Shown: piece after piece, positions 1-63,467 of the stretch
Layout: every line of letters begins with the position of its first letter
Numbering within the stretch: the first letter of the stretch is position 1
Notes under the pieces: generated by a model
The model's input: the letters and a program-made list of their open reading frames with translations, nothing else
Told to the model about the DNA's origin: nothing
Database searches by the model: none
DNA from: Eledone cirrhosa
Taxonomy: Eukaryota
Reading direction: 5' to 3'
NCBI GenBank assembly: GCA_964016885.1
Contig: OZ024740.1
Span: forward strand, 288,796,001 to 288,860,000
Length of the DNA stretch: 64,000 nucleotides
Made by a program: the position numbers and the translations under genes

Positions 1-1941
1 TTGGGTAGAGGTGTCTATCATGTTGATCAACCTGTCAGTCTGGAAACTTTATACAATGTTAAGAAACCTTCTATTGAAGCAAGTGAGCATCCTGTTGACC
101 ATTCAGCTGATGTCATTGAGAACGATGATGTCAACATTTCTTATGCTCCACATATTCCATATGGTCAAGATTCTAATATTGAATGGAAATCTGGTCAAGA
201 TATTCCAAAAGTAAAAATGGCCAAAGGTGAAGATAATTTTCAATATGGTGATCTACCTACAAGTGAACAGCTACAGAAGTCAAATGTAACCACACCTACT
301 GGTCAATATGGTGTCTACCATGTTGACCTTCCTGTGGATCTGGAACAACTACATCGTGTTGCCCAGCCTTCTCGTCCGGATGTCTCTGGATATGTTGATA
401 AAACTATTGGTCAACCTGACATCACTGCTGGTCAAGATCTCCCTGAAGCTATTGAACAGTCTCTAGGAGAATATCATGTAAAACCAGTTTATCTCCCAGC
501 AGGTGAAGATCATTTAACTGATGAACAAGATGGTCAAGAAATTAAACTGCCTTCTTTTCAAGATGTTCCATGTGTACAGATATCCAATCAAGATACTAAA
601 TCTGCTTATATTCCCAGTGAGCAATACAGTGATCCCATTGCCACACCCACAGCTCAAGAGAGACAAGATAACAGACAGTCCATTGGTGAAGGTGTCTATC
701 ATGTGGATGTCCCTATAGCTTTAGAGAGCCTTCATCGAATTGACCGATCTAAGGGACAAAAACCACGTGGCCACATTCATCAGCCTTCTGATCAGGGTGT
801 CAAAAAAACTGACCATGATCTCAGAAAAAGTGTTGAGCTACACAGTGGCCAAGACCCTCTCCAAGATATCACTCTGTCACCTGATCAAGATCAACAATTG
901 CCAGACGTGACATTGACCCATGAAAATGTTCAAACTGTTCAAATGAGCCCTGGTCAACTTCCTGGTAATTTGTCAACAGATCAAGATATTCCATGTTTAC
1001 CTCCACCTACTGGTCAAAGTAGCAGAAATTCCTTGGGTAGAGGTGTCTATCATGTTGATCAACCTGTCAGTCTGGAAACTTTATACAATGTTAAGAAACC
1101 TTCTATTGAAGCAAGTGAGTATCCTTCTGACCATTCAGCTGATGTCATTGAGAATGCTGATGTCAACATTTCTTATGCTCCACATATTCCATATGGTCAA
1201 GATTCTAATATTGAATGGAAATCTGGTCAAGATATTCCAAAAGTAAAAATGGCCAAAAGTGAAGATAATTTTCAATATGGTGGTCTACCTACAAGTGAAC
1301 AGCTACAGAAGTCAAATGTAACCACACCTACTGGTCAATATGGTGTCTACCATGTTGACCTTCCTGTGGATCTGGAACAACTACATCGTGTTGCCCAGCC
1401 TTCTCGTCCAGATGTCTCTGGATATGTAGATAAAACTATTGGTCAACCTGACATCACTACTGGTCAAGATCTCCCTGAAGCTATTGAACAGTCTCTAGGA
1501 GAATATCATTTAAAACCAGTTGATCTCCCAGCAGGTGAAGATCATTTAACTGATGAACAAGATGGTCAAGAAATTAAACTGCCTTCTTTTCAAGATGTTC
1601 CACGTGTACAGATATCCAATCAAGATACTAAATCTGCTTATATTCCCAGTGAGCAATACAGTGATCCCATTGCCACACCCACAGCTCAAGAGAGACAAGA
1701 TAACAGACAGTCCATTGGTGAAGGTGTCTATCATGTGGATGTCCCTGTAGCTTTAGAGAGCCTTCATCGAATTGACCGATCTAAGGGACAAAAACCACGT
1801 GGCCACATTCATCAGCCTTCTGATCAGGATGTCAAAAAAACTGACCATGATCTCAGAAAAAGTGTTGAGCTACACAGTGGCCAAGATATCACTCTGTCAC
1901 CTGATCAAGATCAACAATTGCCAGAAGTGACATTGACTCAT
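1..1941 (+). repeat. Coding tandem duplication, 1032-nt (344-aa) unit, about 1.9 copies in window
   Basis: Sequence at 1 recurs at 1033 with few substitutions; copy 2 has a 12-nt deletion and stops near 1941. Confidence 0.95.
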
Positions 1942-4432
1942 AATCTCAGAAAAAGTGTCCAACCTATTGATCAGGATGTTGAAGAATATTGCTATTATGT
2001 TGATCGTCCTCTCACTGAACATATTTTCCAAGAACCTCAAACTGTTGACGTATCCATGTTGAAACACCCTTTTAATCTGTCTTCTTCTCAAGATTATCAA
2101 CAAGATATTGATCATCTGACTGGTCAAGTGGATTCACATTCTCAAGCTGACCAAACTGGTAGCCATGTTGATTCTCAGCTTGATCCAAAACACACTGATC
2201 AATTTGACAAACAAAAGTATGAAGCGAAGTGTGAAAAACTGTCTGCTAGTGGTCAAATTTTCTCCACTACCATGACAGCTGGTAGTGGTGTTGGTCAGCT
2301 TGAAATGGAAAATCGTGACCATTCATTTGGGATGGCCCCTGTTATACAGGGACAAGCGCAGTACAGTGACCACACTTTTCACCAAAGTCAGCTAAATAAA
2401 GTTAATCTTTCCACTAGGCAAGATCAAATCAAGCTTGGAGCGCATACTATTAGTGAAACCCCGTGTGATATCCTCAGTACTCAGGTTCAAAATAGGCCTG
2501 ATAGTGGTGACCATGAAGATCAGTATGGTCTGAAACATACTGGACAGCAGAGTGGTGACCATGAAGATCAGTATGGTCTAAAACACACTGGACAGCAGGG
2601 TGATGACCATGAATGTCAGTATGGTCTAAAACACACTGGACAGCAGGGTGGTGACCATGAAGGTCAGTATGGTCTAAAACATACTGGACAGCAGGGTGAT
2701 GACCATGAATGTCAGTATGGTCTAAAACACACTGGACAGCAGGGTGATGACCATGAATGTCAGTATGGTCTAAAACACACTGGACAGCAGGGTGGTGACC
2801 ATGAAGGTCAGTATGGTCTAAAACATACTGGACAGCAGGGTGATGACCATGAATGTCAGTATGGTCTAAAACACACTGGACAGCAGGGTGATGACCATGA
2901 AGGTCAGTATGGTCTAAAACACACTGGACAGCAGGGTGGTGACCATGAAGGTCAGTATGGTCTAAAACACACTGGACAGCAGGGTGATGACCATGAATGT
3001 CAGTATGGTCTAAAACACACTGGACAGCAGGGTGATGACCATGAAGGTCAGTATGGTCTAAAACATACTGGACAGCAGGGTGATGACCATGAATGTCAGT
3101 ATGGTCTAAAACACACTGGACAGCAGGGTGATGACCATGAATGTCAGTATGGTCTAAAACACACTGGACAGCAGGGTGATGACCATGAATGTCAGTATGG
3201 TCTAAAACACACTGGACAGCAGGGTGGTGACCATGAAGGTCAGTATGGTCTAAAACACACTGGACAGCAGGGTGATGACCATGAAGGTCAGTATGGTCTA
3301 AAACATACTGGACAGCAGGGTGATGACCATGAATGTCAGTATGGTCTAAAACACACTGGACAGCAGGGTGATGACCATGAATGTCAGTATGGTCTAAAAC
3401 ACACTGGACAGCAGGGTGGTGACCATGAATGTCAGTATGGTCTAAAACACACTGGACAGCAGGGTGATGACCATGAATGTCAGTATGGTCTAAAACACAC
3501 TGGACAGCAGGGTGGTGACCATGAATGTCAGTATGGTCTAAAACACACTGGACAGCAGGGTGATGACCATGAATGTCAGTATGGTCTAAAACACACTGGA
3601 CAGCAGGGTGGTGACCATGAAGGTCAGTATGGTCTAAAACACACTGGACAGCAGGGTGGTGACCATGAAGGTCAGTATGGTCTGAAACACACTGGACAGC
3701 AGGGTGGTGACCATGAAGGTCAGTATGGTCTAAAACACACTGGACAGCAGGGTGGTGACCATGAAGGTCAGTATGGTCTAAAACACACTGGACAGCAGGG
3801 TGGTGACCATGAAGGTCAGTATGGTCTGAAACACACTGGACAGCAGGGTGGTGACCATGAAGGTCAGTATGGTCTGAAACACACTGGACAGCAGGGTGGT
3901 GACCATGAAGGTCAGTATGGTCTGAAACACACTGGACAGCAGGGTGGTGACCATGAAGGTCAGTATGGTCTGAAACACACTGGACAGCAGGGTGGGGAGT
4001 GTCAGTATAGCCTTGAACAAGGTCGTCAACAGAGTAGTAACAATGAATGCAAATACATCTTTGGATATACTGGTCAACCAGATGAAGGTAGCAGCTCTAC
4101 TATTGAACAAAAAAACATCACAAAGATTGTTCACAAATCTGTTAAGCACTTTGGTCATCCACAAGGTGATGAATCCATTCTCCATCTTACCACTGAACGA
4201 CCTCAGGCACATGCTGCTGCTTACTCTCAAAGTAGCAGCACTCAGCAGAGTGACAGCTCATGTTCTCCTCATACATCATCATCTCAGTCAACATCAGACA
4301 CAGGCACACTCCAACTCCAAGACTCTCACATGTCAACTGTTTTATCTGATGCCACTACTGAGGTTACAACAAAAAAGTCTTCACGGAAATCTCGTAAATC
4401 ATCTCGTAAGAAGAAAAAATCATCTTCACAAG
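1..4432 (+). CDS. Giant coding exon A (5' end outside window); repeat-rich disordered segment, probably of a giant ankyrin-like protein
   Basis: Open frame 1-4452; donor CAAG|GTAATT after 4432 (phase 1, same as all downstream exons). Contains a 1032-nt duplication, 31 x 48-nt repeats and a basic end KKSSRKSRKSSRKKKK. The TTG start in the ORF track is a window-edge artefact. Confidence 0.8.
2503..3990 (+). repeat. Coding minisatellite, 31 x 48 nt ([G/S][G/D]DHE[C/G/D]QYGLKHTGQQ)
   Basis: 1488 nt / 48 = 31 near-identical units. Confidence 0.95.
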
Positions 4433-5523
4433 GTAATTTAGATGATCTCTAGTTTTTACCTACATCTCTTTCTTTCTCTTATGCAATTACTCTTTCTCAT
4501 TCACTCACTTCACATTCTCACCCTTTCGTCTTCTCTTAGTATCTGCTGAAATGTGTCTTTGGCCTTATCATCAGCTTAACATAATCAAAGGCTCTGGTAT
4601 AAAAGTTAAACAAATCTAAGCAAAAGCGCTGAAACTAACCATTCTCCTTTTCAAAGCTGTCTCAGAAATACACCTCACAGTTGAGAAAAAAAGCCTTCTT
4701 CCTTTTTACAAAACCTGGAGTTGTTGTTGTTGGTCAATCTTTGAGTGATGATTTCTCTGATTGTACTTTGGTGCTAATTTATTGAATTTCAATCATCATA
4801 TTCTAATTTTTGACAGGTTTGATTTCTATGTAGAAATTGGCTGTTTATTGTACCTTTACCATTTTTCTTTTACTACTACTTTTCTTTTAATTCAAAATGG
4901 CACTCATAGACAATTCAAAGATTTCATTTGCTTGACGCTTTGTCAGGTAAGCAATATTGATGACAACAATGATGATCCAGAAAATTCTTCAATTAATATA
5001 TGCTTAAAGTATGTTTCAACAACTCTATCTGTGTTGGTTGATATTACCATCCTTCATGGCCATATAACTATTTGCTCATTGACCATAGAACCCCATCTTT
5101 TCAGTGACCATATAACTTTCTATATAACATTATTTTGAGGTAGACATATTACCATCTCTTCTCACTGACCATATATTCAGTGGACTGCTCAACTATCTTA
5201 CCTCTTCTTCAGTGGTCATGTACTTTATTCTTTTGTGATCATGTAACTATCTATTCAATGACCATGCAATTGTCTAATCAGTAGTCATATAATGATTCCC
5301 TCAATGGTCATATAATTATCTTATCAATAAACACAACCACTTCTTCATCGGCTATGTAATTTCTTCTCTTGTGCTCATGTAACCATCTATTTAACAGCTA
5401 CACAACTATATCTTTTGGTGGTAAGCATTTTGTGTGACACCTTTATATCTCTCCTCACATACAGTTGCTTTCTAGCAGATATATATATGTATATATGTAT
5501 ATATGTGTGTGTGTGTGTGTATA

Positions 5524-7155: not shown

Positions 7156-8455
7156 GGTGCGGACAATATTTGTTCGCAAGATTACTGTCTAGGAAAAAAT
7201 AACACAGTAGTTTTATTTTTTAAGATTTATTTATCAAACTTGGGTCAGTTTGTCTTCATGACTTGTTCTTTCGATCTCACTCGATAAACCCGCCATAGGC
7301 TTTGATGACGGCCTCAAGGTGACCTCGGAACCGGCTACAGGCCTTCGTCACTGTCCCCCGACTTAGGCCCCTAAAGGCACTTGTGATCCTGGCCTTCAGA
7401 TCGTCTTTTGTATTGCAGCTAGATCTGTTGGTGTCTCGTTCCACTGCACCCCACACAAAGAAGTCGAGGGGATTGCAGTCAGTCGAGCTGGGAGGCCAAA
7501 TGTCAGGTGGAGTGTGGTCGACAAAGTTCTCTGACAGCCAGGCTTGGGTCTTTCGGCTGGTATGGCAGGGCGCTGAGTCTTGCTGCCACACGTACGGCTT
7601 ACCTGCAGCTACCTGGTCGATCCAGGGCTTTACTACCTCGCTCAGAACGCGGATGTAGCCATCGGTGTTCAGCTTGAGGCCCTCAGGGAAGAAGTGAGGT
7701 GGCATGACGTCACTTTGACTACTGACGACACCTAAGACCAATGTTGTCGCTGGAAACTTTGTCTGCCTGACTCTGGGCATGTCTATGGATGAGACAGTAA
7801 GCCACCTGTTGTTCTGGGAGTTGATCTTCTGGTCTTGGCAGAAATTTTTCTCGTCGGAGAAAAACAACAGCATGTCTGGCTCCAGTGGGTGTTTCAACTT
7901 GTTGATCAGCTTCTTTGCGTGCTTCAGTCGCTTTTCTTGCATCGCCTTTGACAGAAATTGTCCTTTCCTCATCTTGTATGAAACGTACCGAATGTCTTCA
8001 TGTACCACCAGCCTAATGAGCTTTTCATCCACGCCTTTCTCCCTTGCAATGGCATGCATTGACTTGCTAGATTTATTGTTGATGATATCCTGAACTTCAG
8101 CGACGAACTCGGAGGTTCTGAAGGCGTCAGATCGTCAATCATGTGTTTTCCTCTCTGAAGTTGCTTCGTAGTCGAATCCTGAATCTTCCAATTCCTTTCT
8201 GACCTTTTCCACCATTCTCCTGCTGACGCCGAGATAGTCTGAAATTTCCTTATTTGTCCTCCCGGCGGATTCCAAGAAGAACTCCGTGTCTCTTCCACAA
8301 ATTTGGAGGTTCAAAATTATTCATAATCAATTATTCTGAAAATAAATAATGGAAATATAGTCACTGTTTTTATGAAGACAAGAGTGACAACGGAAGTAAA
8401 AAAAAATTTGCATAAAATTAGCAGTTGAAAATTGCGAACAAATATCGTCCACACC

Positions 8456-13925: not shown

Positions 13926-14087
13926 CCCGTCTTGCTGTGGCGGGGAAAACGCCCACCATAACTATCACCGAGGACAGCAGCAGCCCACATCATGACGATG
14001 ATGATGAAAGCGATGATTATCTCCGCTTTATTGAAAAGCATCAACAAAAAATGCAACAGCAACAAGCTGCTGCTGCTGCTGGCAAAG
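13926..14087 (+). CDS. 162-nt phase-1 cassette exon (ARLAVAGKTPTITITEDSSSPHHDDDDESDDYLRFIEKHQQKMQQQQAAAAAGK)
   Basis: Pyrimidine tract + TTTCAG|C acceptor, AAAG|GTTAGA donor, 54 codons, frame-compatible. A second in-frame acceptor TTGCAG|G at 13887. Confidence 0.7.
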
Positions 14088-16694: not shown

Positions 16695-17571
16695 CCAATT
16701 AATTTTTGCAACAATCATACTTGGTTAATCTTCTGTAAAGGCCATTATGACAACAATAAGCTATACTCTGTAGAGGCCAGTATGTCAACAATAACGGGTC
16801 CTTTATAGAAACCTGTATATTAACTGTAACAGGCCTGTTTCCCTGTAAAAGTTAGTATCTATTGCATTAAGTTAGCAGTGTGTAGGTTTTCCTCTTTTTC
16901 TCTCACTCCTTCTCTCCAACTCATCAATCTGATTTTTTATTTTCTCTCCAGAACTTCAAGACACAACAAACTTTATAAATTACAAAAGAAAAAAAAAAGA
17001 AAAAAGAAACATTCTCAGTTCTAAATAAAAATGCTGTGAAACTCTTTCTCTGATTATTAAAATCTTCTAATTTTGTGAAAGATATAATTTTACTAAAATA
17101 TATGGGGCAAGAAGGGTGATCAATATTCCTGATCAGCTTTGAGACTTATAAAGTCAAAACTGAGATGACGTTTTTAAATAAAATTAACTGCTTTTTTTTT
17201 AAGTTTCGTCTCTCAAATTTTTCAAAATACACTCATAAAAGATTGTTAAATCTAAATAACTGATCGTTTCCTTTTTGTACTTTTTAGCAACTGATCTCTT
17301 GTTTTTGTTTGTTATCTAAACAGTCTCTGGTCATTCAGTGGGTCTTTTTTTTATTTTTTTTTTAGCAATTTTACTGCACACCGGTTCTTTATTTTTCTGT
17401 CTGTTTTCATCACTTTCACATGTGTGTCTATCACTTTACCTCTTTGTTTCTTTACCCCCTATGTTTTTGATCCTCCCTCGTTACTATTGTTTGTTTTTGT
17501 TCTGGTTTACTCTTTATCTGCTTGTTCTGGTGTAAATTAATATATTGACTAATCCCTTCTTTTACTAGCAG

Positions 17572-17622
17572 GTCAAGAGCCAATTACCACAGTGTCCTCT
17601 GAACACCATGAGGAAGAATCAG
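17572..17622 (+). CDS. 51-nt phase-1 microexon (GQEPITTVSSEHHEEES) with NAGNAG acceptor
   Basis: Branch-like TGACTAAT, pyrimidine tract, TAGCAG tandem acceptor (17569/17572), TCAG|GTAACG donor; 17 codons, no stop. Confidence 0.7.
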
Positions 17623-20159: not shown

Positions 20160-23100
20160 ATGATGAGAGCGAGGGTAAAAGAAGATCAGTTGCTTCTATT
20201 ATTCAAATGTTTGAGCAAACATCTGACACTGCCTTGCAAAGTTCGGCTACAGACATTGTTCGTGAAGTCCAGAAATCAGCACAGGCAACATTACGTAAAG
20301 AATCCAAGGAATTCACAAAACAAGACTCTTCTGAATGGGTTGTCATTGACAACAGCGATCTTGATGGCTTTGATGCTGAAAAAGTACCATCAGCCAATGG
20401 CACTTATGAAAAAACAGAAGATTCTGCTTCAAAGGTAGAAGAATGGGTAAAAGTCTCTGCTGTCAAAGAAAAATTTGAGGACAAAATTAAAAATGGCTCC
20501 GTGTCTGAAAAGACTGTTGTTCGTGAAGTCACCAAAGTTGAAACTACTGTAGAAAAGCAAAAAGCTCCAGAAAAAGATGATGTAGAACAACCTTATGGTG
20601 TCCCAGAACTGCCCGACACCCACTTCAAGACTCCTTCTGATGATGAAAATCTTGATTTTTCTGAAAAATTGAAATTATTTACTGGCAAACATGCCCAAAG
20701 TTATTATGTCACAACTCAAGCCGATGAATTATTAAGCTCCGATGAAGAAACGCCGGACACCACCTCTAAAGGAAGTGAAAGGTCATACCAAACCGCATCT
20801 GAAACGAGTGAAATCCGATCCGAAACCGTTAAAGTGTCTTCTGCAGTAGAACAAAAAAGTGAAGTCGTTGAAGAACGACGTGAAAGCACTTCATCGTTGA
20901 TTGCCAAGTTTGAAGAAGTTACAAATCGTGAAAAATCTCTGAAGAAAGAAGCCATGTCATTTGACAAGGATAATAGAGAGACAGTACAGAAAGAAATGAC
21001 AAAATCTTGGAAAACTGATTCTTCTCAAAGTACAGTTCAGGAAAAGAATGAAAGTTACATATTCCAAGAGAAAAAAGAAAGTGTTTCTTCACACAGCTTT
21101 CAACCTGAGCAAAAGACAACATCAGAAGCGAAAGAAAAACAAAGTGAAACTCCTGATTTGAAGGAAGTTTTCAAAGAGAATAAAGGAATTGTGTCATCGG
21201 TTGAGAAGAGCTTCAAAACTGAAACAACTGAAATGAAGCAGAAAGTAGAATATTCTATAAATGATGGCAAAGTAAAAGAAGTCTTCACTGCTGAAGATAG
21301 CCAAATTTTATCATCTGAGACTTTGGACAAAACTATATCATCATTTGATAAAGATATTTCACCAGCACCTAAGGATAAATCACCTTCACCAGAAACTCAG
21401 CTGAAGACACCCTCCCCAGAACTTAAGGAAAAAGCTCCTTCACCAGAGCCACAACTTAAGTCTCCTTCACCAGAACCAAAAGATAAGTCTCCTTCACCAG
21501 AACCTAAAGATAAGACCCCCTCACCACTACAACTGAAGTCAAAGTCCCCCTCACCAGAACCTAAAGATAAGACCCCCTCACCACTACAACTGAAGTCAAA
21601 GTCCCCCTCACCAGAACCTAAAGATAAGACCCCCTCACCACTACAACTGAAGTCAAAGTCCCCCTCACCAGAACCTAAAGATAAGACCCCCTCACCACGC
21701 CAACTGAAGTCCAAGTCCCCCTCACCAGAACCTAAAGATAAGACCCCCTCACCACTCCAACTGAAGTCCAAGTCCCCCTCACCAGAACCTAAAGATAAGA
21801 CTCCCTCACCACTCCAACTGAAGTCCAAGACCCCCTTACCAGAACCTAAAGATAAGACACCCTCACCACTCCAACTGAAGTCCAAGTCCCCCTCACCAGA
21901 ACCTAAAGATAAGACCCTCTCACCACTCCAACTGAAATCCAAGTCCCCCTCACCAGAACTTAAGGAAAAAGCTCCTTCACCAGAGCCACAACTTAAGTCT
22001 CCTTCACCAGAACTTGAAGATAAGATACCCTCACCACTACAACTGAAGTCAAAGTCCCCCTCACCAGAACCTAAAGATAAGACCCTCTCACCACTCCAAC
22101 TGAAATCCAAGTCCCCCTCACCAGAACTTAAGGAAAAAGCTCCTTCACCAGAACCACAACTTAAGTCCCCTTCACCAGAACCAAAATATAAGTCAACTTC
22201 ACCAGAACCTAAAGATAAGAGCCCCTCACCACTACAACTGAAGTCAAAGTCCCCCTCACCAGAACCTAAAGATAAGACCCTCTCACCACTCCAACTGAAG
22301 TCCAAGTCCCCCTCACCAGAACTTAAGGAAAAAGCTCCTTCACCAGAGCCACAACTTAAGTCCCCTTCACCAGAACCAAAATATAAGTCAACTTCACCAG
22401 AACCTAAAGATAAGAGCCCCTCACCACTACAACTGAAGTCAAAGTCCCCCTCACCAGAACCTAAAGATAAGACCCTCTCACCACTCCAACTGAAGTCCAA
22501 GTCCCCCTCACCAGAACTTAAGGAAAAAGCTCCTTCACCAGAGCCACAACTTAAGTCCCCTTCACCAGAACCAAAATATAAGTCAACTTCACCAGAACCT
22601 AAAGATAAGACGCCCTCACCACTACAACTGAAGTCAAAGTCCCCTTCACCAGAACCTAAAGATAAGGCCCTCTCACCACTCCAATTGAAGTCCAAGTCCC
22701 CCTCACCAGAACTTAAGGAAAAAGCTCCTTCACCAGAGCCACAACTTAAGTCTCCTTCACCAGAACCAAAATATAAGTCAACTTCACCAGAACCTAAAGA
22801 TAAGACCCCCTCACCACTACAACTGAAGTCAAAGTCCCCCTCACCAGAACCTAAAGATAAGACCCCCTCACCACCCCAACTAAAGTCAAAGTCCCCCTCA
22901 CCAGAACCTAAAGATAAGACCCCCTCACCACTCCAACTGAAGTCCAAGTCCCCCTCACCAGAACCTAAAGATAAGACCCCCTCACCACTCCAACTGAAGT
23001 CAAAGTCCTCCTCACCAGAACCTAAAGATAAGACCCCCTCACCACTCCAACTGAAGTCCAAGTCCCCCTCACCAGAACCTAAAGATAAGACCCCTTCACC

Positions 23101-26100
23101 ACTCCAACTGAAGTCCAAGTCCCCCTCACCAGAACCTAAAGATAAGACCCCGTCACCACTCCAACTGAAGTCAAAGTCCTCCTCACCAGAACCTAAAGAT
23201 AAGACACCCTCACCACTCCAACTGAAGTCCAAGTCCCCCTCACCAGAACCTAAAGATAAGACCCCTTCACCACTCCAACTGAAGTCCAAGTCCCCCTCAC
23301 CAGAACCTAAAGAGAAAACTCCTTCACCAAAACCTAAAGATAAGTCACCTTCACCACCTCATCTTAAGTCAAAGTCTCCCTCACCAGAACCTAAAGATAA
23401 GTTGCCCTCACCACTCCATCTGAAGTCCAAGTCCCCCTCACCTGAACCTAAAGATAAGACCCCTTCACCACTACACCTCAAGTCAAAGTCCCCCTCACCA
23501 AAGTCTAAAGACAAGTCTCCTTCCCCACCACATATGAAGTCAAAATCTCCCTCACCTCTCCACCTGAAGTCAAAGTCTCCCTCACCAGAACCTAAAGAGA
23601 AAACTCCCTCACCCAAAACAAAAGACAAGTCTCCCTCACCACCTCATCTGAAGTCAAAGACTCCCTCACTGTCTCCCTTGAAATCCAAGTCTCCTTCACC
23701 AGAACCTAAAGATAAGTCTCCCTCCCCAGCTCGCATGAAGTCAAAGTCTCCCTCACCATCTCCCTTGAAATCCAAGTCTCCCTCACCAGAATCTAAAGAG
23801 AAAACTCCTTCACCAAAACCTAAAGATAAGTCACCCTCCCCACCTCATCTTAAGTCCAAGTCCCCCTCACCAGAACCTAAAGATAAATCACCCGCACCAC
23901 TCCACCTGAAGTCAAAGTCCCCTTCACCAGAACCTAAAGATAAGACTCCCTCACCAAGGCTGCAATTGAAGTCGCCTTCACCAAAAGCTAAGGATAAGTC
24001 TCCTTCACCACCTCACCTGAAATCCAAGTCTCCCTCACCAGAACCTAAAGAAAAGACTCCCTCACCAAAACCTAAAGACAAGTCACCATCACCAGAACCT
24101 CAGCTGAAAGCACCCTCACCAGAGCCTCAAGCCTCTGAAATTTGTCCTAAGCCTTATGATGAAGAGGATTTTGAAATTATTGAAAAGGAGGAAATTTTGG
24201 AAGCCAAGATTTCCTTAGAGCGCCAAACACCGTTCGACCCAGCTGCTATTGATCTTTCATCAACTGAAAAGGTTTGTCCTCCAAAACAACAAGGAGCAGA
24301 GCCACCAGATGATGGCCTTCAAACACAACTAAAAGAAGAACCTCACAGAGATACTGATTATGAAATCTCAAGGAGAGAAGTTTTTTTAGAAAAGGAATCT
24401 CGCAGTTTCTATTCATCGAAACCTGAGCCATCAATCTTAAGTGATTCTGTTAAAAAGGATCTACACACAGTTGTTTCCTCAACTACTATCAAGGAAGTGT
24501 CATCCACCATTACTGAACACACAACCAAGTTAGTTGAAGATAAAGATAAGGAAAGAACAACCCTATCTAGTGATAAATATTTTCTTCCAAAAAACGAGGA
24601 GAGATCTCCTGTGTGTGATGACATACAGGAGAGTAAAGTAGAGAGTGTGTCAGCAGACAGTGTTAAAGTTTCACCTGTGGAACAAAAAATTACCAGAAAA
24701 TCATCCTCTGGTGAACTGTTTGAGATCTCTCGGCAAGAAGAAAAAATGATCATAGACTCTCCTGAAAAACTAGAAATTCATGACTGGCAAACCTCAGCCC
24801 CAGAAGTCACTGAACGGTTTGATAGACAGGCTGAATCCATGTCAGATGAGAGTTTGGTTGAAGTTCAACTTGATGCTTTAAAAGAAGATATCAGAGAAAA
24901 AGTCCTTGAAGAAAACCAAGAAAGATCTATCAAACAATTGCAACAATTGCAAGATGTTTCAGATGAGGAATCAGATGAAATATTTACACATACTGATCAA
25001 AGAATGAAAGAGGAATTCACTGAGAAGCCACATGAAGATTCTGAGAAAAGGTTATCCTCAGCAGAATCCTCTGGTTTGTCACCAACAAAAGATCTTAAAA
25101 AAGATGTGGGTGACCGAACTGAGATAACTTATGAATTCCCTGTACAAGAAGACATGTCTTCAGATGAAGGGTCAAAGGGTAGTTCTCTAGAAATATTCCT
25201 TTCGCATGAAAAGATCTGTCAGGAAGAAGAAGAGTATATATCACACAAAGACCAAACATCTGTTACTCGTGAACAGCGAGTTTCCACAGTAACATCGGAA
25301 TATAAAACATCAAGTACATCTGAAATTAGAGAAGAAAGTACCAGCACAGAAGTGAAACCTGCATATCCAAGTAAAATTTCCCAAGAATATCGTGTGGAAG
25401 ATGAGCAGGATATGACATCAGATGAAGAAACATCTGAAGAAATCCCTGAATCTGAGACCTCAAAGAAAACAGCATCTCAGTTTAGTTCCATTCTATCAGA
25501 GGAAGCTACGTATTTTGAAATCAACAGACAAGAGCAGTACATGAAAGTTGAGTCACCTGAAAAAATTGAATTTAAAACACCGGCCAAAAGCGATGGTCTT
25601 AGTTTTAGTGCCGATCCTTTTTTAGTATCTAGTGCCTTGGCACATGAAACATCGGTGGAGAGTATTAGAAGCATTCCCAAAGTGGAATCTCCCCTTACTG
25701 AAGAATCTCCAAAACATGTAGCCAAGGATGACACTTCTGACCGAACTGACGAGAAATATTCTGTTGACCTCTCTACTTTACAAAAGCAGTCAGAGGCTAA
25801 ATTTAAAGATACTTCAATTCACAATTTCCAGGAAGAGAAATATATGTCCAGTGATGAAGAAAGTGATGTTGATGATACTGATCATGTTGACATAATGGCA
25901 GAAATGGAGTATATGTCTAAATCACAGAGCACAGATGTCACAGATGAAATGGAGAAGAGATCTGAAGATATCACTGATAGTGGATTTAAAAGTGGAGCTG
26001 ATGATGATTTACTAAAGAGGAGTACTGATAAAGATCAAATGGATTTTACAAAACCATTTCCTTTTCAAACGTTTGAGGAACAACTTCTTAAAGAACAGGT

Positions 26101-33577: not shown

Positions 33578-34423
33578 GTATTGACAAACAGGAAATCATA
33601 TTTGAGCAGATGGTTGAACAAATTGTTTGTGAGGGAAACAAAATATCAGTGCCTGATTCCACAATACAAGATGAAGATTCTGTTTCCACTGAACCTGCGT
33701 TGATGTCATCATCTCAGTCTAGAGACAACAATACTTATTCTAGTATCAGCAGTTCTGATTTTGGTGAACAAGTAGCAGCCGTACAGTCACAACAAGTCTG
33801 TAGAGAAGACAGCGGCTCTGATGATCGAGCTCTAACTGAAGAAGACTTTGAACGCATGATGTCCAGTTATGAAAATGTTTATGATGGAGTGCAACTCGCT
33901 CCTGAGGTCAGCAAGTTAGCCATGACTGCCAGTGATATAGATATTGGAGATCGTTTTGACACAAAACAACTTGACCTGCATCTTCAGCCAACTGGACGCT
34001 CTTCAAGTTATGAGCAGCTTTACAAAGAAACAGGTGAAATGGCAGCTGAATTAAATGAACAAGCCGAGCAAGTTATTTATTCTGCAGAGTCAAAAGAAGG
34101 TGAGTTGAACAACGTGAGTGCAGCGACTGACTCACTTGTGTCTCAAGCTTGCTCGAAACCACAGAGTGAGCCAAAATGTTTACCTGCAAAGAGGTCAGTC
34201 CGGTTTGACACTGATCCCAGTCCAATTCACATAACAGTACAGTCTGGACTAGACACTTTAGGCTGTGATGATAGCATAACAACGGAGTCAACTGACCCAG
34301 AATTTATGATGCGAGCCTATTCTTGGGACCCAGACTGGGACCAGTCTAAGTGTCGTAATAGAACATATTCTGCTCCTGGGAAAAAGTCTCGTCGGGGTTT
34401 GCCACAAATTTACCAAGAGAAAG
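33578..34423 (+). CDS. 846-nt phase-1 exon (282 codons), acidic/Ser-rich
   Basis: T/G-rich tract + TGCAG|GT acceptor, AAAG|GTATCG donor, inside ORF 33478-34515; composition like the giant exons. Confidence 0.8.
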
Positions 34424-43745: not shown

Positions 43746-43889
43746 ATATGCCTCCTACTGACCAGCATGATGTCCAGCGAGAATTAATAACGGCTGCAAA
43801 GGATGAGGAGGAGGAGAAGGAAGAGGAGGAGAACCTCAGCTCCTCCAGTTCCGAAGTAGCCCAAGTTGAAGATGTAGATTTTCTGCCAG
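43746..43889 (+). CDS. 144-nt phase-1 exon (DMPPTDQHDVQRELITAAKDEEEEKEEEENLSSSSSEVAQVEDVDFLP)
   Basis: TTTCTCTTCTTGTCTCAG acceptor, CCAG|GTAGCT donor (weak), 48 codons, in frame. Confidence 0.65.
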
Positions 43890-48302: not shown

Positions 48303-51300
48303 ATGCCGAGATGCGTGACACCAGTGAAGAAAAAACAGAAGAAACGGATGTGGAAGAGCAGTTCTCTCCCCTTCCTAAAAGTTCTCCTGCTTCTAAAGGT
48401 GCTCTTGATCTTAGGTTAGAAGACAAGTTCTTTTCGTTCACGCAATCCCCCGTGGAGTCCCCGACCGCTGAAATAACAAATGAGATATCTCCTGCTCAGG
48501 ATCTCCTCGATGTCAAAGATATGCAAATAGCTGTCGGCCTCTCACCATCGGAGATTAATGCCAAGTCCAAGCTGGGATCTCTTCCAGAATTCTATGAAAC
48601 AAAAACAACTGAAGACTTCAAAGCTATGAGTAAAATTATCTCCTCAAAATCTCACAAAATAGAATATGAGAAAGATACTGGTGAATCATTCAACATTCCT
48701 AGGATTTCGACCGATTCTGATACAACTGAAGAAAGATTAGAGCTTGATAATGTAGCAGAACAATCAGCTACATCATTAATGTCTGAAGAACATGATGGAA
48801 CTGAAGATGACTACAAAAGAGAAACACCCGAAGAAAGAGCTGAACGTTTATCTTCCATGGCCTTTGATAACATGGGTTTTGCTGGTGAAGATGTTGTCGA
48901 CAGTGAAATTAAGACACACTCTGATGACTTCTCTGAAGAAAGTCCAATTCTTGCTGCCAAAGAAATATCTCCAGAAGACCTCGAAGAGAAGCCTCATCAA
49001 TTTGACTTCCCAGCTGTTCATCAAGAAATATGGCAGATGGGTATCCAAGCACTGGGGAAAACCACATTATCAGAAGAGAGTGAGATGTTTTCTAGCTCAA
49101 TGAAATTTGAAGAAGTAACACACAAGGTTTCATTTGAAAAAGATGATGATGATGAGAGTGGTGCAGCAATCTATTCTGAGAGTGAAGAAACCTCTCGTTC
49201 AGAAAGTGGAGATACTAAAGATCAGAACTCTTTCCAAGAATCTATCCAAACATCTAAAGCATCTGATGGCCAATTTGAAGCTACCTCACAAATAAGAACA
49301 GAAAAAACTGTTGTAACATCATCCCGAGCACAAGTCTCTTTATCAGAGAGTCAAAGTAAAATGGTAACTGAAACTAAAGTCTATCAAGCGAAAGAAACCA
49401 GCAAAGGAATTGAACTGGCTGGAGATGATATTACTGAGAAGGCTCCTAAACATCTTACAAGCATAGTTAGTGAGCCTATTATTTCTCATCCATTTGATCA
49501 TTCTACAGTGGAAAGTATTTCTCCAGAAGCCAGTAGTTCTGAAAGTGAAGGTTTCTATGACAAAGAATCTGGCAAGAAGTTACCTTGGGAAACTGTCCAC
49601 CATTTCTCCCGGCAGTTCTCTGATAATTATCTTGAGCAACAGGAAAAACAAGGAATCATTACTGTGCAGTCAGTTGACATGGGAGTATTTTATCGGAGAA
49701 GTAGTAAAGACTATACAAATGTAACGTTTAGTGAACAAGATATCTCCGAATCTATTGCTGAAGAAGATGAAGAACCCCCAAAACGGGTTACCTTTACCCT
49801 CTCAGAAGATTTAGAAGAGTTTCCATCAGAAATAGTTACCGGTTCAGATGAGTCAAAGCATGATGATGAAACTGACCAAGAAATCAGAAAATCAGATGAT
49901 GTTATAGAAGTATCTGTCAAAGATCAAATTGTTTTCGACAAGACAAGAAAAGGTGAGCCTGTTGCAACATCCAAAACAGAAGAATCTGTTGTCATCACAA
50001 CATCCAAGACAGCAGAACCTGTCACCACTACATCCAAGACTGAAGACAGTGTTGTTACAACATCCAGAAGAGAAGAACCTGTTATTACTACATCAAAGAC
50101 AGAAAGATCTGTCTTCTCAACATCCAAGACAGAAGAACATGTTACAACATCCTCCAAAACTGAGGAACCTGTCATCACTACCTTGAAGACAGAACATGTC
50201 ACTACCACATACAAAACTGGAGAACCTGTCATTACAACATCTAAGACAGAAGAATCTTTCATCACAACATCTAAAACTGAAGAACCTGTCATCACAACAT
50301 CTAGGACAGAACACGTTACTACAACATCCAGAACAGAGGAGCCTGTCACCACAACATCAAAGACAGAAGAATATGTCACAACATCCAGAACAGAGGAGCC
50401 TGTCACAACATCAAAGACAGAAGAATATGTCACAACATCCAGGACAGAGGAACCTGTCGTCACAACATCCAGGACAGAGGAACCTGTCGTCACAACATCC
50501 AGAACAGAGGAGCCTGTCGTCACAACATCAAAGACAGAAGAATATGTCACAACATCCAGGACAGAGGAACCTGTCGTCACAACATCAAAAACAGAAGAAT
50601 CTTTCATCAAAACATCTAAAACTGAAGAACCTGTCGTCACAACATCCAGAACAGAGGAGCCTGTCGTCACAACATCAAAGACAGAAGAATATGTCACAAC
50701 ATCCAGAACAGAGGAGCCTGTCACCACAACATCAAAGACAGAAGAATATATCACAACATCCAGGACAGAGGAACCTGTCATCACAACATCAAAGATAGAA
50801 GACCATGTCACAACATCCAGGACTGAAGAACTTTTCACTAGGACATCAAAAACAGAGGAACCTGTCACCACAACATCGACAGAAGAATCTTTCATCACAA
50901 CATCTAAAACTGAAGAACCTGTCATCACAACATCTAGGACAGAACACGTTACTACAACATCCAGAACAGAGGAGCCTGTCACCACAACATCAAAGACAGA
51001 AGAATATGTCACAACATCCAGAACAGAGGAGCCTGTCACAACATCAAAGACAGAAGAATATGTCACAACATCCAGGACAGAGGAACCTGTCGTCACAACA
51101 TCCAGAACAGAGGAGCCTGTCGTCACAACATCAAAAACAGAAGAATCTTTCATCAAAACATCTAAAACTGAAGAACCTGTCGTCACAACATCAAAGACAG
51201 AAGAATATGTCACAACATCCAGAACAGAGGAGCCTGTTACCACAACATCAAAGACAGAAGAATATGTCACAACATCCAGAACAGAGGAGCCTGTCGTCAC

Positions 51301-54300
51301 AACATCAAAGACAGAAGAATATGTCACAACATCCAGAACAGAGGAGCCTGTTTCCACAACATCAAAGACAGAAGAATATGTCACAACATCCAGGACAGAG
51401 GAACCTGTCGTCACAACATCAAAGACAGAAGACCATGTCACAACATCCAGGACTGAAGAACTTATCACTAGGACATCAAAAACAGAGGAACCTGTCATCA
51501 CGACCTCCAAGACAGAAGAATATGTTACTACAGAATCTGATAGTGAAGAACCTGTCATCACAACATCAAAGACAGAACATATTATTACAACATCCAAACT
51601 TGGAGAACCTGTCATCAAAACCACAAAAACAGAACATGTTACTACAACATCCAAAACTGGTGAACCTGCCATAATAACATCCAAGACAGAAGAATATGTT
51701 AGTACAACATCGGAGCCTGAAGAAGCTGTCATCACAACTTCTAAAACTGGTGAACCTGTCATTACAACATGCAAGACAGAAGAACGTGTGATCACAACAT
51801 CCAAAACAGAAGAACCTGTCATTAAAACAACTAGGACAGAACGTATCTCTGTAGAACCAAAAGAAAAATATGACACAACAGCCTCCAAGACAGGGCATGT
51901 TACTAAAACATCTACATCAGCACATGTCACTGTGACCTCCACTGTGGAACGTGTCATCACAACTTCCTCGAAAAAAGATGATGATATTAAAGAAGTTGAA
52001 GAACATATCACTATAACATCTAAGGATAAATATGTCTCTGAGGAAGGGCCTATGGTGGGAGCCAAGGAAGGTATTATTGAACCATATGACAGGATGTCTG
52101 GGGAATATGAAGCTACTGTTTTGGCTAATATTATGGATGACCAATCTTTTAAACAAGAAAAAGTGTCTGAATCACCTGAAGAAATATCTAGAGAGGGCAC
52201 TTTAAAAGAGAAAGATCTTGAATATGGAATGGTCTCCAAGAGCACTGCTGACTTAGCTAGTCCTTGTGAAAGTAAGTCTTCTGACCTTTCATTAGATCTT
52301 TCATCAGAAAAACTCCCGTCAAAAGATGGTCTTGATGAAAAACAACTTGAGCCAAAGCCAACCAGTGAAGAAATATCACCAAAATCAGGAATAATCGGTG
52401 TTGTAAGCATTGAATCTCGAATGGCTCAAAAGGAATTATTACAGGAGTCAGCAGATAAGGATCGCTCACTTTCACCATCAGTTGACAGTGATGAGTTATC
52501 AACAACTTATGAAAGTCAAGGAGAACTGCAAGAACTCTGGGGTGAAATCCCTCCTGTTGATCGCTATCCTGCCCCAGCTAGAAGGAAACATTATGCTGAT
52601 AGTGAATCTTCGGAAGCAGAGAAAGAATCTCCTGAAACTGAACTTTCTCCTATTGCTGAAACACCAGCCTCTAAAGCTGAGACTGAGGAGCAAGAAGAGA
52701 GTAAGCTGACAGCTCAAGACAGAAGGGTAACATTTTTGTCTGAGGAGAGTAAGGAGAAGCTGAGACAATCTATTTCTAATGAAGATTTAGTCAAAACATC
52801 AACCTCTTCTTCTGAAGTATCCAACGAACCAACTTTATTAGCTGCTTCGTATGATTTGGATTCAGGGCATGTTTCACACATTGTGACAGCTTATGATATG
52901 TCTCCAGACACCATTGAGAGTCAGGCACCGCATCCACCGGCGCCTAAAGCTATTCTTTCGAGTCCTGAAGATGACGTGTTTGAAGTTGAACCAACTGTGG
53001 GAACTGCTCGTATCGACGAACCCTGCACTGAGCCAGATTCTGAAAAGAGTTATACCGGGCCTCAGTCTGAGGTCATCATTATAGAAGACATTTGTGTCAC
53101 AAAAGACAAAACGGGGTCGGAGTCGACGGAATCTTTACCGCCAACTCCTGCTCCAACGCCGAAAGATGCAACCACCATCAAAGATACCGTTTGTAATCTT
53201 CAAGATGCAGCCAACAAACTGCAAACCGAGGGTCTCTTTGATCGGCAGTTTGGATCTGTAAGCAGTGAAACTTCTGAAAAACGTCCTTCAAGTTTTGAAA
53301 AGGACTTTTCAAAAGATGAAAGCAGTGATGATGATGATGATCATGGCCAATCATTTGAAATGGTTTCACCAACTGAAATTATTGGCTATGATCAATATGC
53401 TGCTAAATATTTACAAGGTGGTATAGCGGGATGCATTGAAGCAGCAAGTTTGACCGCTTCAGTGGAATCCCTCTCTACATCCGGAAGTAGTTTTGCTGAC
53501 CTCAGAGCTAGTGAGCCCACAAGTATGAAATCTAGTTTAGAAGAGTCTGCCAGTGCTACAGCTTTTGTTGAGCCATCAGCACCTCCAATGGAAGAAATAT
53601 TTCAACTTCCCAGTTCTCAGACTACAAAACCTGATACCGATTCCTCACCAGATCAATCACTTTTTAGCAGTAGCGATGCTTCAGAGAAAGGTGCAGCCAT
53701 TATGGATATTGTTGCCTCAAGTGTTGCATCTCCAGGTGCATGCCGTCCTGATTTGTTACCCTCTGACTCTTTTCAGCAGAGTTTATCTACAGAGGAGATC
53801 AGTGAAACAGAAAATATTGAAGACATCGCTGCCGATAGATTCTCCCAATTACCAAATGGTCCTACAGAGGTAGATTTCCAACCAGACATTGATTCTGTTT
53901 CATCTACTGTAAAAACTGTGGTGCCTACAGCACCACCAGATTTGGTTCAGTCATCACCATCATATGTTATGGAAAAGGAAAAATCAGAAAGCAGTCAGCT
54001 TGATGAGGCTGTCATGGATCTTGAAGACAATCAGATATCGGCTGGTTCTGATGCTGCTGTTAGAGATGTTATGACCGATAGCTTGATAGATGATGTGAAG
54101 TTGTCGGCTGAGCAACAGGAAGTTTTAGTAACGTCAGATCAGACTTTATATGAACTTGAAATGCCAATGGAGGAAGAAGCTTCCCCCATTGAACAAGTTG
54201 GTCCAGCATCAGCTGCAGTTTCCATAACTGAAACTACATCATCTGTGGTTGTTAAAACAGAAGCCCCTACACCACTGGAATTTCATGAAGAACATCATCA

Positions 54301-57300
54301 TGACATATATCCAGCAGAAATGATTGAGTCTGGATCTCCAACTGAAATTATTGGACTAGAAACAGTGTTAGATGACCTAGAAGAACAACCGTATGAGTTG
54401 AAGAAAGATGAAATTTATCCTGGCAAAAGAGCACTTGAGTTTGATGTGTCTAGCTATGAAACTTTGTTAGAAGAAAACGAAGAGAGACAGCATGAAGGAG
54501 AGTCTGGCGTGGTAGAGGTTAGCCATCTAATTAGAGAAGATCAGAGGATTAATCTGGATGATACTGATGAAGAAACAGTTCAGTTTTCGGATCAACTAAA
54601 ATCCGATCTTGATGTAAGCTTTGTTCATACTTCAGAAGAAGTATGTACAGACATGGTAGAAGAAGACTTTAGTGATTTAAGCAAAGATGCTTCTTATGAA
54701 CAAGTTGAACTGACTGAAAGCAGTCTAGAATTTGCTGAGAAAGCTGAAGAAGAACTTGAAGCGTTAGCAGGAAAAACCCCAGAAATATCATTTGAACCAT
54801 CTAAAGGAGAACAAGATTTGGACAGACCCATATCCCCAACACCCCAGGATTCTCAAGAAGGAATCCTTAGTGATGATTATGAGAAGGTTGACTCTATTCT
54901 AAGCACAGAAGAACTAGAAAAAACAGCTACAGTATTTGTAGACTCTGTTCTTGAAGAAGTTTCCAAAGTTAGGGAAACTACTCAGGTGTTCCCTGAACAA
55001 ATAGAAGAAACTGAAAAACCAATCAATGAAACAGATTTCGATGAGAGCAAAGAATCTGAAAAAATGCTTGCCTTCTCATTTACAGAACCATTTGATCCAT
55101 CAATGATGTGTCGGTCACAACCAGCCTTTTTCTCGGCTCCACCTCCACCTTCTCATCCCCCTCCTTTCACGAAACAGGGGTCAGATGATATGCCCGAGAT
55201 CACCATCACTGAACACATACATAAGGTTGCTGATGAAGATGACTATCCTACCAGCTTTGCTCGATCACATATGCCAGATTCTTCCTCTGACCAGGAGGAC
55301 AAGAATGATGAAAAAGAATCTGGAGATGATAGTCCAAAGGGTGTTGGAATGTCCTATTTTGAAATGATTCAGGATGAAATGGAATTTGAATCAGATGAGA
55401 CTGAAAAGAATGGAGTGTCATCACATGAAACCAGCTCATCAGCATTCATCATTGCTGAGGCTCATTCTGGTTCCGCAAAAACCTTCACCAGTGAACAAGA
55501 AATTGAATGGAATGTGCAGAAATTTTCTGAAACTCCTGACAAAGTACCAACCACTTCTTTTGAAGACTCCTTTTCTCTACAGACTAAAACTGAGCCAGTA
55601 CCTATTAGTTCTTCAAAACAATTCCAACGAGATTCTGAAACTAAAGATTCTTCCAAAACTGGTTTCCTTGGATTTGAGCCATCGATCACACATGTCACTG
55701 ACATTCTGAGTCCAGAAGATATTGCTGATACATCGAGTGTGGACAGCTTTACAACAGTCGTCGGTGTAGACCAAGAAGGGGATGAATGTGATGATGACCG
55801 ATTGGCTGATGTGGCGTCTATGACGTCATCAATCCACTCCGACATTTATTCCATGCACACTGAACCAGAAGAAGAAGAAGAACCATTTGACTGGCCCTTA
55901 TTGACAGAAGAGGACAAATCTGGGGAATCTTCTCCATGTAGCGATCGTTTTGAGATGATTGGGAAGACTGCTTTATCAGTGATATCTGAAAAGTCTGATG
56001 AAGATCGATTTGAAATGATAGAAAAAGATGAACTTGAAGCTCTCTCCGACAGCCACTCTGGCCATTCTGGCCACTCTAGCAAAACCTCACCAGAGATGAT
56101 ATCTGCCTCACCTGGTACTGTGGGTCATACCCATGGCTATCCAAACATACGATATGCTGGCAGAAGTCGAGACAAAGATGACGGATCTGCTGCTTCTTCT
56201 GTTTCTTCATCTTTGCTAGAATTTGAGAGGTTAGAAGGGGAAATGGGACAATTTGGTTCCCTAGGATCAAATGAAGCCCACAGCCTGCCTAGCTCTTTTG
56301 ACAGTCGAAACTTCCGTTGGCGAGCAGGTGATCGAGATGATGTGTCAGTTGCCTCATCATTAGGAGAATTTGAACGTCTAGAGCGACAGATTGCACTTGG
56401 AGGTTCAATTGGCTCGTTTGGTTCAATTGACAAGTTGATGCCATCGGGACAAGGTAGTGCCACCAATGGTTCAATGTCGTCATTGGCCGAGTTTGAAAAC
56501 CTTGAAAAAGAGTGCACTGGGGGTGGATACTCCAGTTCTGGAGATGATCGCCACAGTTCATCTAGTGGCCATAGCAAACGCAGTGCAAGTTCATCTCTTG
56601 CTGAATTTGAGCGACTAGAACAAGAAATAGTCATATCTGAAGAACTTGCTGCTGAAGCTAAAAAAATAGCGTCAATATTGGAATCAGGGGAGCTGCCTGA
56701 ATATCCAGAAAGTGAAAGTTTAGGAAGTTCATATCAATCAAATGGACATATGAGAGATTTACCTGAAATAATTGGTAATTTTGATATTGAACAGGACTCC
56801 ATAGATGGAGATGACATTGACAAAGATTCACTGAGCTCTGAAGAACCTAAGTTACAGGATGTTAGTCAAGTGGCTAAAGATGATGAAGACGATGTAGACT
56901 CATTGGATGGAGACAGCAAAGATGAACTAACTTCTAGTGTCATCTTTGTCTCAAATGCTGAAATACAAGATTCCAGTGAAATAGGTCAGTTTGAATTTGA
57001 TCGAGATTCTTTGCAAGGAGATGATACAGCTATGCAGTTTTCTGTGGAATCCTTGCAATTGGACCAAGATGCTTCATTTGACATGCACAGTTCTGTTGAT
57101 TCCTTAGAAATAAAAGACAAGTTCAGCCGAGATATGCAAAGCTCAGCTGACTCTCTGGAACTAAAAGAAAGAATGAGCAAAGAAATGGTAGATTCAACCG
57201 ATTCTTTGGAATTTAAGGACACTGTGAAAGATACTGACAAATTTGAAACAGATTCACTGGTTGACCAAGATGATATCATGCAAACGTCTTCTGATTCACT

Positions 57301-58220
57301 TGATGCATTTCCTGAATTAACACACCAAAACATCATGGAAGCTTCTTTAGAATCAGCTCGTTGGAGTCTAAGCAGCTCTTACTTTTCCCATTCCTCACAA
57401 GAAACCTTACGATCTGAATCCCACAGTGACTCAAGCCATTCTAGAGATGTCATGCAAATGTCTGCAGATTCTGTGGATTTTGAAAAAGACAAAAGATTTG
57501 AGGGTTCTGATACCGAAATGGAATATAAGTCAGTAACGAGTAAAACATTGACATCATCGACTTTAGATCCCGAAATCCGCATGATCACAGGAATATCTCA
57601 TCCCAACAATCCTTTCTTAGATAACGAAGGCAATGTTAGGACAGATCTGGGGTATCCGGGCCATTTTAGAAGCAAATATGAATATTCAAAGTTTGATAAA
57701 GAAGGGAACTACCGTTGGAACACAGAGCTAGAAGAAAGTACCAGAAACAACACTTATCTCAACTGGGGTCCTTATCAAGAGAAAAAGAAGGTTTACACCA
57801 TGACAGAATGGGAAGCCATGCGCAACGCTAAAAAGAGAAGTGCTGATAATGATGAAGAACTTGGCGGGGACAGTGAACAAGAGTCTGTGATTCCTGATAA
57901 TCACTTTGCCCAACTTAAAAACAAAGAAGTCTCTTCTAACCTTCCTTCTGAGCACACAACTTCCCACCCTAGAACTTCTTCACCTCCTCCTCCTCCTTCT
58001 ACCGTTCTACGGCCTTCTACAGTTTCCTCCTCTTCTACTACTACCACTACTACTTACTACTCCTCTTCCAATTCCTCTTCCTCTTCCTCAACCTATAATG
58101 CTGCTGTGACTCGGCCTGACTCCAGCTCCACCAGTCAAACTGCTGCTACCTCCGATCCTCTGCTATACCATCACAGTATGTCGGACACTACTACTACTAC
58201 TGTCCATAAAACCAGTAGAG
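48303..58220 (+). CDS. Giant coding exon C (9918 nt, 3306 codons); TTS[K/R]TEE repeats, SLxEFERLE and DSLE repeats; probable giant ankyrin (Ank2-L/UNC-44-like) long exon
   Basis: 3308-aa ORF; TACTAAC branch point 48269-48275, acceptor CTATAG|AT, donor AGAG|GTATAT, both phase 1. Confidence 0.85.
49955..51840 (+). repeat. Coding TTS[K/R]TEE(PV/YV) array (27/30-nt units) with internal block duplication
   Basis: Visible in DNA and protein; a block starting at 50248 recurs at 50881. Confidence 0.95.
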
Positions 58221-61634: not shown

Positions 61635-61643
61635 ACCTTTGGG
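61635..61643 (+). CDS. Candidate 9-nt microexon (adds D-L-W)
   Basis: CTTGCTTTATCTTGCAG|ACCTTTGGG|GTGAGT: strong acceptor, consensus donor, frame-preserving and stop-free in phase 1. Confidence 0.55.
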
Positions 61644-63270: not shown

Positions 63271-63410
63271 GAATAAAAGGAGATATGTATAAAGTATGTA
63301 TTTATATAATGAACATTAATGGACTTTTACATTATATTTACTGACTGATGACTAGAGAGATTTATTATAGAGCAGTCTGTACTTGAACCAAGAACTATTT
63401 TGTTTTTCAG

Positions 63411-63467
63411 AACAGACAGATTTGCCACAACAGATGTCCACTGAAGAATCACAGAGCAAAACAGAAG
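63411..63467 (+). CDS. 57-nt phase-1 exon (EQTDLPQQMSTEESQSKTE)
   Basis: TTTTGTTTTTCAG acceptor, GAAG|GTGATT donor, 19 codons. Confidence 0.7.

Follow-up and report, generated by a model that had tools for sequence, protein, structure and literature searches.

Several giant phase-1 exons form the tail of a predicted ankyrin gene in the octopod Eledone cirrhosa

The subject of this study is a 64,000-nt stretch of the Eledone cirrhosa genome (assembly GCA_964016885.1, contig OZ024740.1, positions 288,796,001 to 288,860,000 of the forward strand; hereafter called the window), which, judging from sequence comparison, almost certainly represents the part of a canonical ankyrin gene that follows the death domain. 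Our overall model, to which we assign a probability of about 75%, is that the phase-1 exons of this ankyrin tail, among them three giant exons (A, B, and C), give rise to short and giant isoforms of a neuronal scaffold.

Identity of the gene

An ANK-ZU5-ZU5-UPA-death core was found 75-290 kb upstream of the window on the same strand (contig 288,506,211-288,720,609). The first 1,800 aa of an Octopus bimaculoides model are collinear with a region that starts ~290 kb and ends 75 kb upstream; of these residues, 1,612 align at an identity of at least 80%. The ANK-repeat exons of this orthologue mapped in order with 80-100% identity, and the last repeat has a Pfam Ank match. Moreover, Pfam ZU5 and UPA_2 were detected over the cut-off, the whole ZU5-ZU5-UPA cassette is collinear, and a death domain is present downstream of UPA according to Pfam. 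The ankyrin locus is the only place in this genome with a UPA_2 match. Public Octopus models from three species, whose database names are 'titin' or 'uncharacterized', run from the core into exons B and C and share 96-97% identity with the window sequence over the conserved part of C. Because these models join the core to B and C, the gene can be identified as a giant ankyrin. An earlier reading of the window from its letters alone (the first-pass annotation) had proposed an ankyrin tail downstream of the death domain and had suggested a look upstream for the ANK, ZU5, UPA, and death-domain exons; all of them are there.

It is very improbable that the window exons form a futsch/MAP1- or titin-like gene of their own, lying downstream of an ankyrin. 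Such a gene would suit the names 'titin' and 'microtubule-associated protein futsch' carried by related models, but the 'titin' models hold ANK, ZU5, UPA, and Death Pfam domains together with these same exons, no Ig, Fn3, or MAP1 family was matched by Pfam in the window exons, and the same exon order recurs across molluscs. A futsch or titin identity is thus largely refuted, and the filing of an octopus ankyrin gene as 'titin' is a database error that this locus corrects.

Seven small exons, variable among models, lie between the death domain and the window. In addition, an exon of ~90 aa between the ANK repeats and ZU5 (contig 288,669,574-288,670,008) is 89% identical to that of O. bimaculoides.

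Exon structure of the ankyrin tail

All nine exons proposed for the window have AG/GT ends, a length divisible by three, and an open phase-1 frame, and together they comprise 23,734 nt, in agreement with the first-pass annotation (Table 1). The window holds three long plus-strand open reading frames (ORFs), which in full, including the stretch outside the window, measure 2,744, 3,320, and 4,204 aa. Chance was ruled out as their origin, because the longest frame among 200 shuffles of 52 kb of local intron was 177 aa. As had also been described, the three giant exons each contain a chemically distinct repeat array. Pfam searches of the window exons A, B, C, and 846 gave no family over the cut-off.

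Table 1. Exons and motifs of the ankyrin tail, with positions in the window
Feature	Position	Strand	Remark
Giant exon A, 3' part	1..4432	+	whole exon 12,570 nt, contig 288,787,863-288,800,432
162-nt phase-1 cassette exon	13926..14087	+	included or skipped in octopus models
51/54-nt phase-1 exon, tandem acceptors	17569..17622 (51-nt form 17572-17622)	+	second acceptor 3 nt upstream; spliced to B in 49/49 models
Giant exon B, 8,115 nt	20160..28274	+	in 34/34 core-containing models
Predicted LIR core and C-helix	24170..24205	+	motif and spacing as in AnkG/AnkB (PMC8727931, in part)
Two-donor exon	33578..34423	+	donor 34099 (522 nt) in models; donor 34423 (846 nt) in none
144-nt phase-1 cassette exon	43746..43889	+	included or skipped among models
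Giant exon C, 9,918 nt	48303..58220	+	Thr/Ser/Glu array between conserved blocks
Second LIR-like motif and four helices in C	56009..56620	+	helices common to arthropod giant ankyrins
Candidate 9-nt micro-exon	61635..61643	+	strong splice signals; 0/49 octopus models
57-nt phase-1 exon	63411..63467	+	C>57 junction in 48/49 models

Splice junctions were counted in 49 octopus giant models, a subset that covers 15/19 and 15/99 members of two big clusters. Exon 51 is joined to B in all 49 models. Downstream of B, the junction B>522 occurs in 45 models, B>144 in three, and B>C in one; C is entered from exon 144 in 46 models and from exon 522 in two, and is followed by exon 57 in 48. The exon list was therefore borne out at the junctions 51>B, 144>C, and C>57, but the 9-nt exon and the 846-nt donor were used in 0/49 models, the 522-nt form (end 34099) being used instead. 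The extra frame of the 846-nt form is conserved in three relatives, the 522/846 exon has homologues in 43 cluster representatives, and no other micro-exon in 154 kb has splice signals as strong as those of the 9-nt candidate. The list also proved to be incomplete, as two further exons lie 12-14 kb past the window: a 61-nt exon leading from phase 1 to phase 2 (contig 288,872,024-288,872,084) and the terminal exon, starting at 288,873,753. The junctions 57>61 and 61>terminal were each found in 48/49 octopus models.

A fourth giant exon (Z) is likely present 12 kb before A. This 4,587-nt phase-1 candidate (contig 288,771,617-288,776,203) has splice sites lying close to the ends of its ORF, as do those of A and C. 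It occurs in 0/49 octopus models and has no homologue, and a metagenome scan returned no relative. Together, Z, A, B, and C amount to 35,190 nt, or 11,730 aa. Another frame, ORF Y (L019:2199-5270, just past the window), lies in the intron before the 61-nt exon; it is a 1,062-aa Gly/Ala/Thr/Asp/Tyr frame with possible phase-1 sites that appears in no model. ORF Y was rejected as an exon because it consists of a 24-nt minisatellite that is open in more than one frame, its acceptor is weak, and its composition is atypical. Pfam searches of Z and Y gave nothing over the cut-off.

Exon usage among gene models

All 34 octopus models containing a death domain, retrieved over a size range of 4,133-13,152 aa, include both B and C and neither A nor Z; only the small exons vary. 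The claim that any subset of exons splices in frame holds arithmetically, but in these core-containing models B and C always occur together and A in 0/34. These model junction counts support small-exon combinatorics and omission of A in octopods, but not skipping of B or C.

In other molluscs, the order death domain, A module, B, 522, C, terminal exon is kept. The arrangement is hence not specific to cephalopods, and two long exons are listed for Aplysia in the relevant part of PMC5135030. The B-equivalent is missing from 2/16 Ostrea edulis, 2/18 Crassostrea virginica, and 1/2 Mercenaria models, and the A module from 5/10 Mytilus californianus models. C is missing from 15/15 Mya RefSeq models and present in a Mya GenBank model. 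In all these cases, absence as judged by probe may also reflect divergence or an annotation gap. Of the combinatorial set of lengths envisaged for a cephalopod, the variation of small exons was found, whereas independent omission of the B-, C-, or A-equivalent is confined to bivalve and gastropod models. In the snail Babylonia (P0355, P0357), two ankyrin loci were observed, one modelled with exon C and one without it.

It is quite possible, though at less than even odds, that B and C form one obligatory block in octopods, so that the gene has a single giant length class with small-exon variants and its combinatorics are only arithmetic. Both exons are present in 34/34 core models, and a search for shorter proteins yielded cephalopod models only, all ending before B. 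On the other hand, there are bivalve and gastropod models without the B- or C-equivalent, the 34 models derive from a size-limited search, and public annotations favour the longest isoforms, which counts against an obligatory block.

Giant exon A

The 4,432 nt of exon A in the window are only its 3' part; its 5' end lies 8.1 kb before the window. The exon encodes 4,189 aa, compared with 1,978 aa in O. bimaculoides. It contains nine anchors of a 344-aa unit, and the eight units measured are 96-99% identical. Among seven equal-length copies, 34 non-synonymous and 10 synonymous variable codons were counted, a pattern consistent with a recent expansion under little constraint. Further downstream (2504-3995) are 31 copies of a 16-aa His/Gly/Gln unit (48-nt repeat), of which O. 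bimaculoides models have 11-20 copies. The 498 aa of this array include 62 His and 14 Cys, and it might bind metal.

The 5' end of A encodes a 130-aa module that is 34-44% identical in bivalves and gastropods. It is predicted to be an all-beta sheet (predicted local distance difference test score (pLDDT) 92.5, predicted template modelling score (pTM) 0.66, 13 sequences). A search of PDB sequences with the module profile gave a best E of 0.56, Foldseek found no match to the model at E≤0.001, and the best hit of the fold search (Z 7.0, root-mean-square deviation 3.1, 72 aligned) is a generic beta-sheet match. Pfam had no match for the A module or the terminal exon. A possible likeness to vertebrate obscurin-binding motifs was dropped as unsupported, because the PDB profile search reached only E 0.56. 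The statement that the protein has no globular domain thus holds for the window exons, given the Pfam result and the predicted disorder of the C tail, but not for the 5' end of A, which lies outside the window and is predicted to fold.

A might also serve mainly as an alternative first coding exon driven by an internal promoter, in which case the product would be a tail protein of ~7,700 aa that lacks the core. The donor of A is used in 15/15 core-less O. bimaculoides models from 2015, which start in A (13 of them at a Met eight codons past its acceptor) and continue into either the 162 or the 51 exon, and the acceptor of A is used in 0/34 core models, including isoform X1 at 7,761 aa. However, A carries a good phase-1 acceptor, and in scallops, mussels, oysters, clams, and snails its module is part of models that also contain a death domain; in the older core-less models, annotation split the gene in two. 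We regard this alternative as rather unlikely and treat A as an optional module of the ankyrin tail.

Giant exon B and its predicted LIR

Exon B encodes 2,704 aa (2,258 aa in O. bimaculoides), including a basic Lys-Ser-Pro array at 21358-24100 (27/57-nt repeat; 914 aa; isoelectric point (pI) 9.9) followed by an acidic tail. Just past the basic array, acidic residues precede F-E-I-I, and positions +7, +8, and +11 are occupied by Glu, Ile, and Ala; the LC3-interacting region (LIR) of AnkG and AnkB likewise has an acid at +7 and Ala at +11 in the passages of PMC8727931 consulted. We predict that this peptide is an Atg8/GABARAP-type LIR with a C-helix.

The first LIR pattern, afterwards set against passages of PMC8727931, was matched by 4/1,000 shuffled giant exons, and by 4/30 gene representatives (two octopods, an oyster, and a scorpion) versus 4/1,500 shuffles. 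A second pattern, fitted afterwards, was found in 9/30 representatives versus 0/1,500 shuffles, the other 21 including mussel, clam, brachiopod, and crab models. The LIR-plus-helix motif is also present in oysters, snails, and one scorpion. It is gone together with the B-equivalent in 4/4 such oyster models, and 5/10 scorpion isoforms contain it. No literature on a mollusc ankyrin LIR or on the helix motif of exon C was found in a search that left out most subscription papers.

Matching of individual exons revealed at least four Atg8-family loci in this genome. Introns interrupt the octopus GABARAP-like gene, whose first exon did not turn up within 50 kb. At the start of B (20180-20215), the motif S-V-x-x-I-I-x-M-F-E was noticed, which recurs directly after A-like hairpin repeats in the brachiopod Lingula.

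Giant exon C and the terminal exon

In exon C, a Thr/Ser/Glu array (49965-51841; 30-nt Thr-Ser-Lys/Arg-Thr-Glu-Glu unit) is flanked by blocks conserved in molluscs, a brachiopod, and a nemertean. The portion of the exon that was searched occurs only once in this genome. Four S-L-x-E-F-E-x-L-E motifs begin at 56210, 56357, 56480, and 56594. The last conserved 717 aa are predicted to be disordered with five isolated helices (mean pLDDT 46, pTM 0.28), and each of the four motifs corresponds to an isolated predicted helix in the disordered chain.

This helix motif was detected in 74/74 homologues from the exon-C search (partly by construction), in 47/55 arthropod giant models (an isoform-redundant count), in 25/30 hand-picked gene representatives, and in 0/2,120 shuffles; the arthropod set used for motif comparisons holds species other than Drosophila. 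A profile of the helix block hit 48/106 mostly arthropod proteins and no reversed protein, and the profiles of three other C blocks hit 0/106, so that only the helix block, the acidic block following it, and the terminal exon reach arthropods. A second LIR-like motif (56009-56044), located before the helices, occurs in 34/74 homologues, and the helix motif of the terminal exon in 16/30 representatives, arthropods among them. Since arthropods share the helix motif, C is likely the ancestral protostome giant exon, that is, the oldest one. Two queries of the ESM Atlas gave no usable match.

Transposon-like sequences nearby

A 285-aa frame on the minus strand of the window (7280-8134) resembles what we take to be a fragment of a Tc1/mariner transposase, with no Pfam match. 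Downstream of the gene, 17-39 kb past the window (L020-L023), there are fragments that resemble LINE (long interspersed nuclear element) reverse transcriptase and hAT transposase.

Comparison with known giant ankyrins

Giant ankyrins are known in molluscs. According to the passages of PMC5135030 consulted, two long exons exist in 8/23 loci, including Aplysia (7,569 and 6,560 bp; S4 Table), repeat arrays are variable, and the giant exons of fly, worm, and urchin have no homology; these passages include no octopus and do not mention GABARAP. The octopus locus resembles such protostome giant ankyrins in its full core, long exons past the death domain, Ser/Glu-rich composition (B and C), and lineage-specific arrays. 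The long-exon signature given there is ~25% Ser+Glu and >55% S/E/T/D/K/P; B (28.0% and 67.2%) and C (28.9% and 59.4%) agree with it. No locus in S4 Table has more than two long exons, whereas the octopus locus has three of >8 kb and a 4.6-kb candidate. The octopus motifs common to molluscs and arthropods also differ from the absence of homology reported for fly, worm, and urchin exons.

Drosophila Ank2-L/XL likewise has two giant exons past the death domain, with a repeat array as spacer, and, in the sections of PMC6703079 seen, Ank2-XL organises microtubules with Futsch. Its repeat units are different, however, and in octopus all giant exons precede a shared terminal exon. Fly Ank2 is listed as an Atg8a two-hybrid hit in part of PMC7615515, so that a connection between an invertebrate ankyrin and Atg8 is by itself no novelty. 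The giant isoform (AO13) of Caenorhabditis elegans UNC-44, compared by description only, has a long Ser/Thr/Glu/Pro-rich tail and repeat blocks past the death domain, and its C-terminus anchors microtubules via UNC-119/UNC-33 (excerpts of PMC7159925); it differs in having one long exon of 14,974 bp. Vertebrate AnkB and AnkG share a basic Pro/Ser/Lys module (AnkB pI 10.6 in an excerpt of PMC7401806; octopus B pI 9.9) and the LIR core with its +7 acid and +11 Ala (PMC8727931, in part), but their giant exon precedes the death domain, and no alignable similarity was seen beyond a 12-residue motif pattern. The closest relatives are the public Octopus models LOC106871604/'titin' isoforms (O. bimaculoides, O. 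sinensis, and O. vulgaris), which represent the orthologous locus with the same exon order but are misnamed, have shorter arrays, and lack A and Z in the core models. We found no literature on giant ankyrin isoforms or long ankyrin exons in cephalopods, most subscription papers being outside the search.

Proposed model and its implications

The ANK/ZU5/UPA core of ankyrins holds membrane proteins and spectrin. The phase-1 exons of the octopus gene likely give short and giant isoforms that would act as a membrane-to-cytoskeleton scaffold in neurons, with the tail extending as a disordered linker arm. The commonest giant form is probably the core with B and C (~7,400-7,900 aa in relatives), with A, and perhaps Z, as optional modules that would be included less often. 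By analogy with the basic repeats of AnkB (PMC7401806, in part), the Lys-Ser-Pro array of B may bind microtubules electrostatically under the control of phosphorylation, and its LIR-plus-helix may, as its motif predicts, recruit Atg8/GABARAP. The short conserved helices of C might be presented to partners or an adaptor, as the C-terminus of UNC-44 binds UNC-119 in the passages of PMC7159925 seen; Ank2-XL acting with Futsch (PMC6703079, in part) offers a further analogy. Repeat arrays would expand in each lineage and tune length, and the motifs would carry function; in view of these conserved motifs, which the first-pass annotation did not notice, the cassettes may be more than length spacers.

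Several observations weigh against this model. The junctions come from predicted gene models of related species, and from the partial set described above (15/19, 15/99). No octopus model extends to the terminal exon after skipping B or C, nor is A or Z linked to the core in any of them. A (14.7% Ser+Glu, 42.0% for the six residues) and Z (17.0% and 43.1%) miss the long-exon composition signature. Scanned proteins of oyster, snail, clam, brachiopod, and scorpion lack the basic array of B, and therefore binding to microtubules by way of this array is not conserved. Finally, the LIR peptide has no match in PDB (0 hits) or Pfam.

A more tentative extension, which we think somewhat doubtful, is that the giant exons are partner-binding cassettes. 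The AnkB/G-type LIR-plus-helix of B would then be an inherited remnant in vertebrates, molluscs, and chelicerates, supplying a sequence link that points to a single origin of bilaterian giant ankyrins; splicing of B could switch Atg8/GABARAP binding on and off, the tandem helices of C might constitute a pan-protostome binding site, and inclusion of A and Z might bring the protein to more than 13,000 aa.

Giant ankyrins have a role in organising axons, and to find one with several giant exons in a mollusc is in itself no surprise. Neither the family nor the tail position nor the presence of multiple giant exons is new, and a model of the orthologue already existed under a wrong name; the third and possible fourth giant exons and the cross-phylum motifs are the new elements. 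Judged by sequence, short motifs are shared with the giant ankyrins of arthropods and likely with vertebrate ones. The origin of vertebrate and invertebrate giant ankyrins is disputed, a single origin being favoured in PMC5135030 and convergence in PMC7401806 (both in the parts consulted), because the giant exons were said to lack homology. The motifs common to molluscs and arthropods, along with one matching the vertebrate GABARAP-binding site, would provide concrete peptides that bear on this question.

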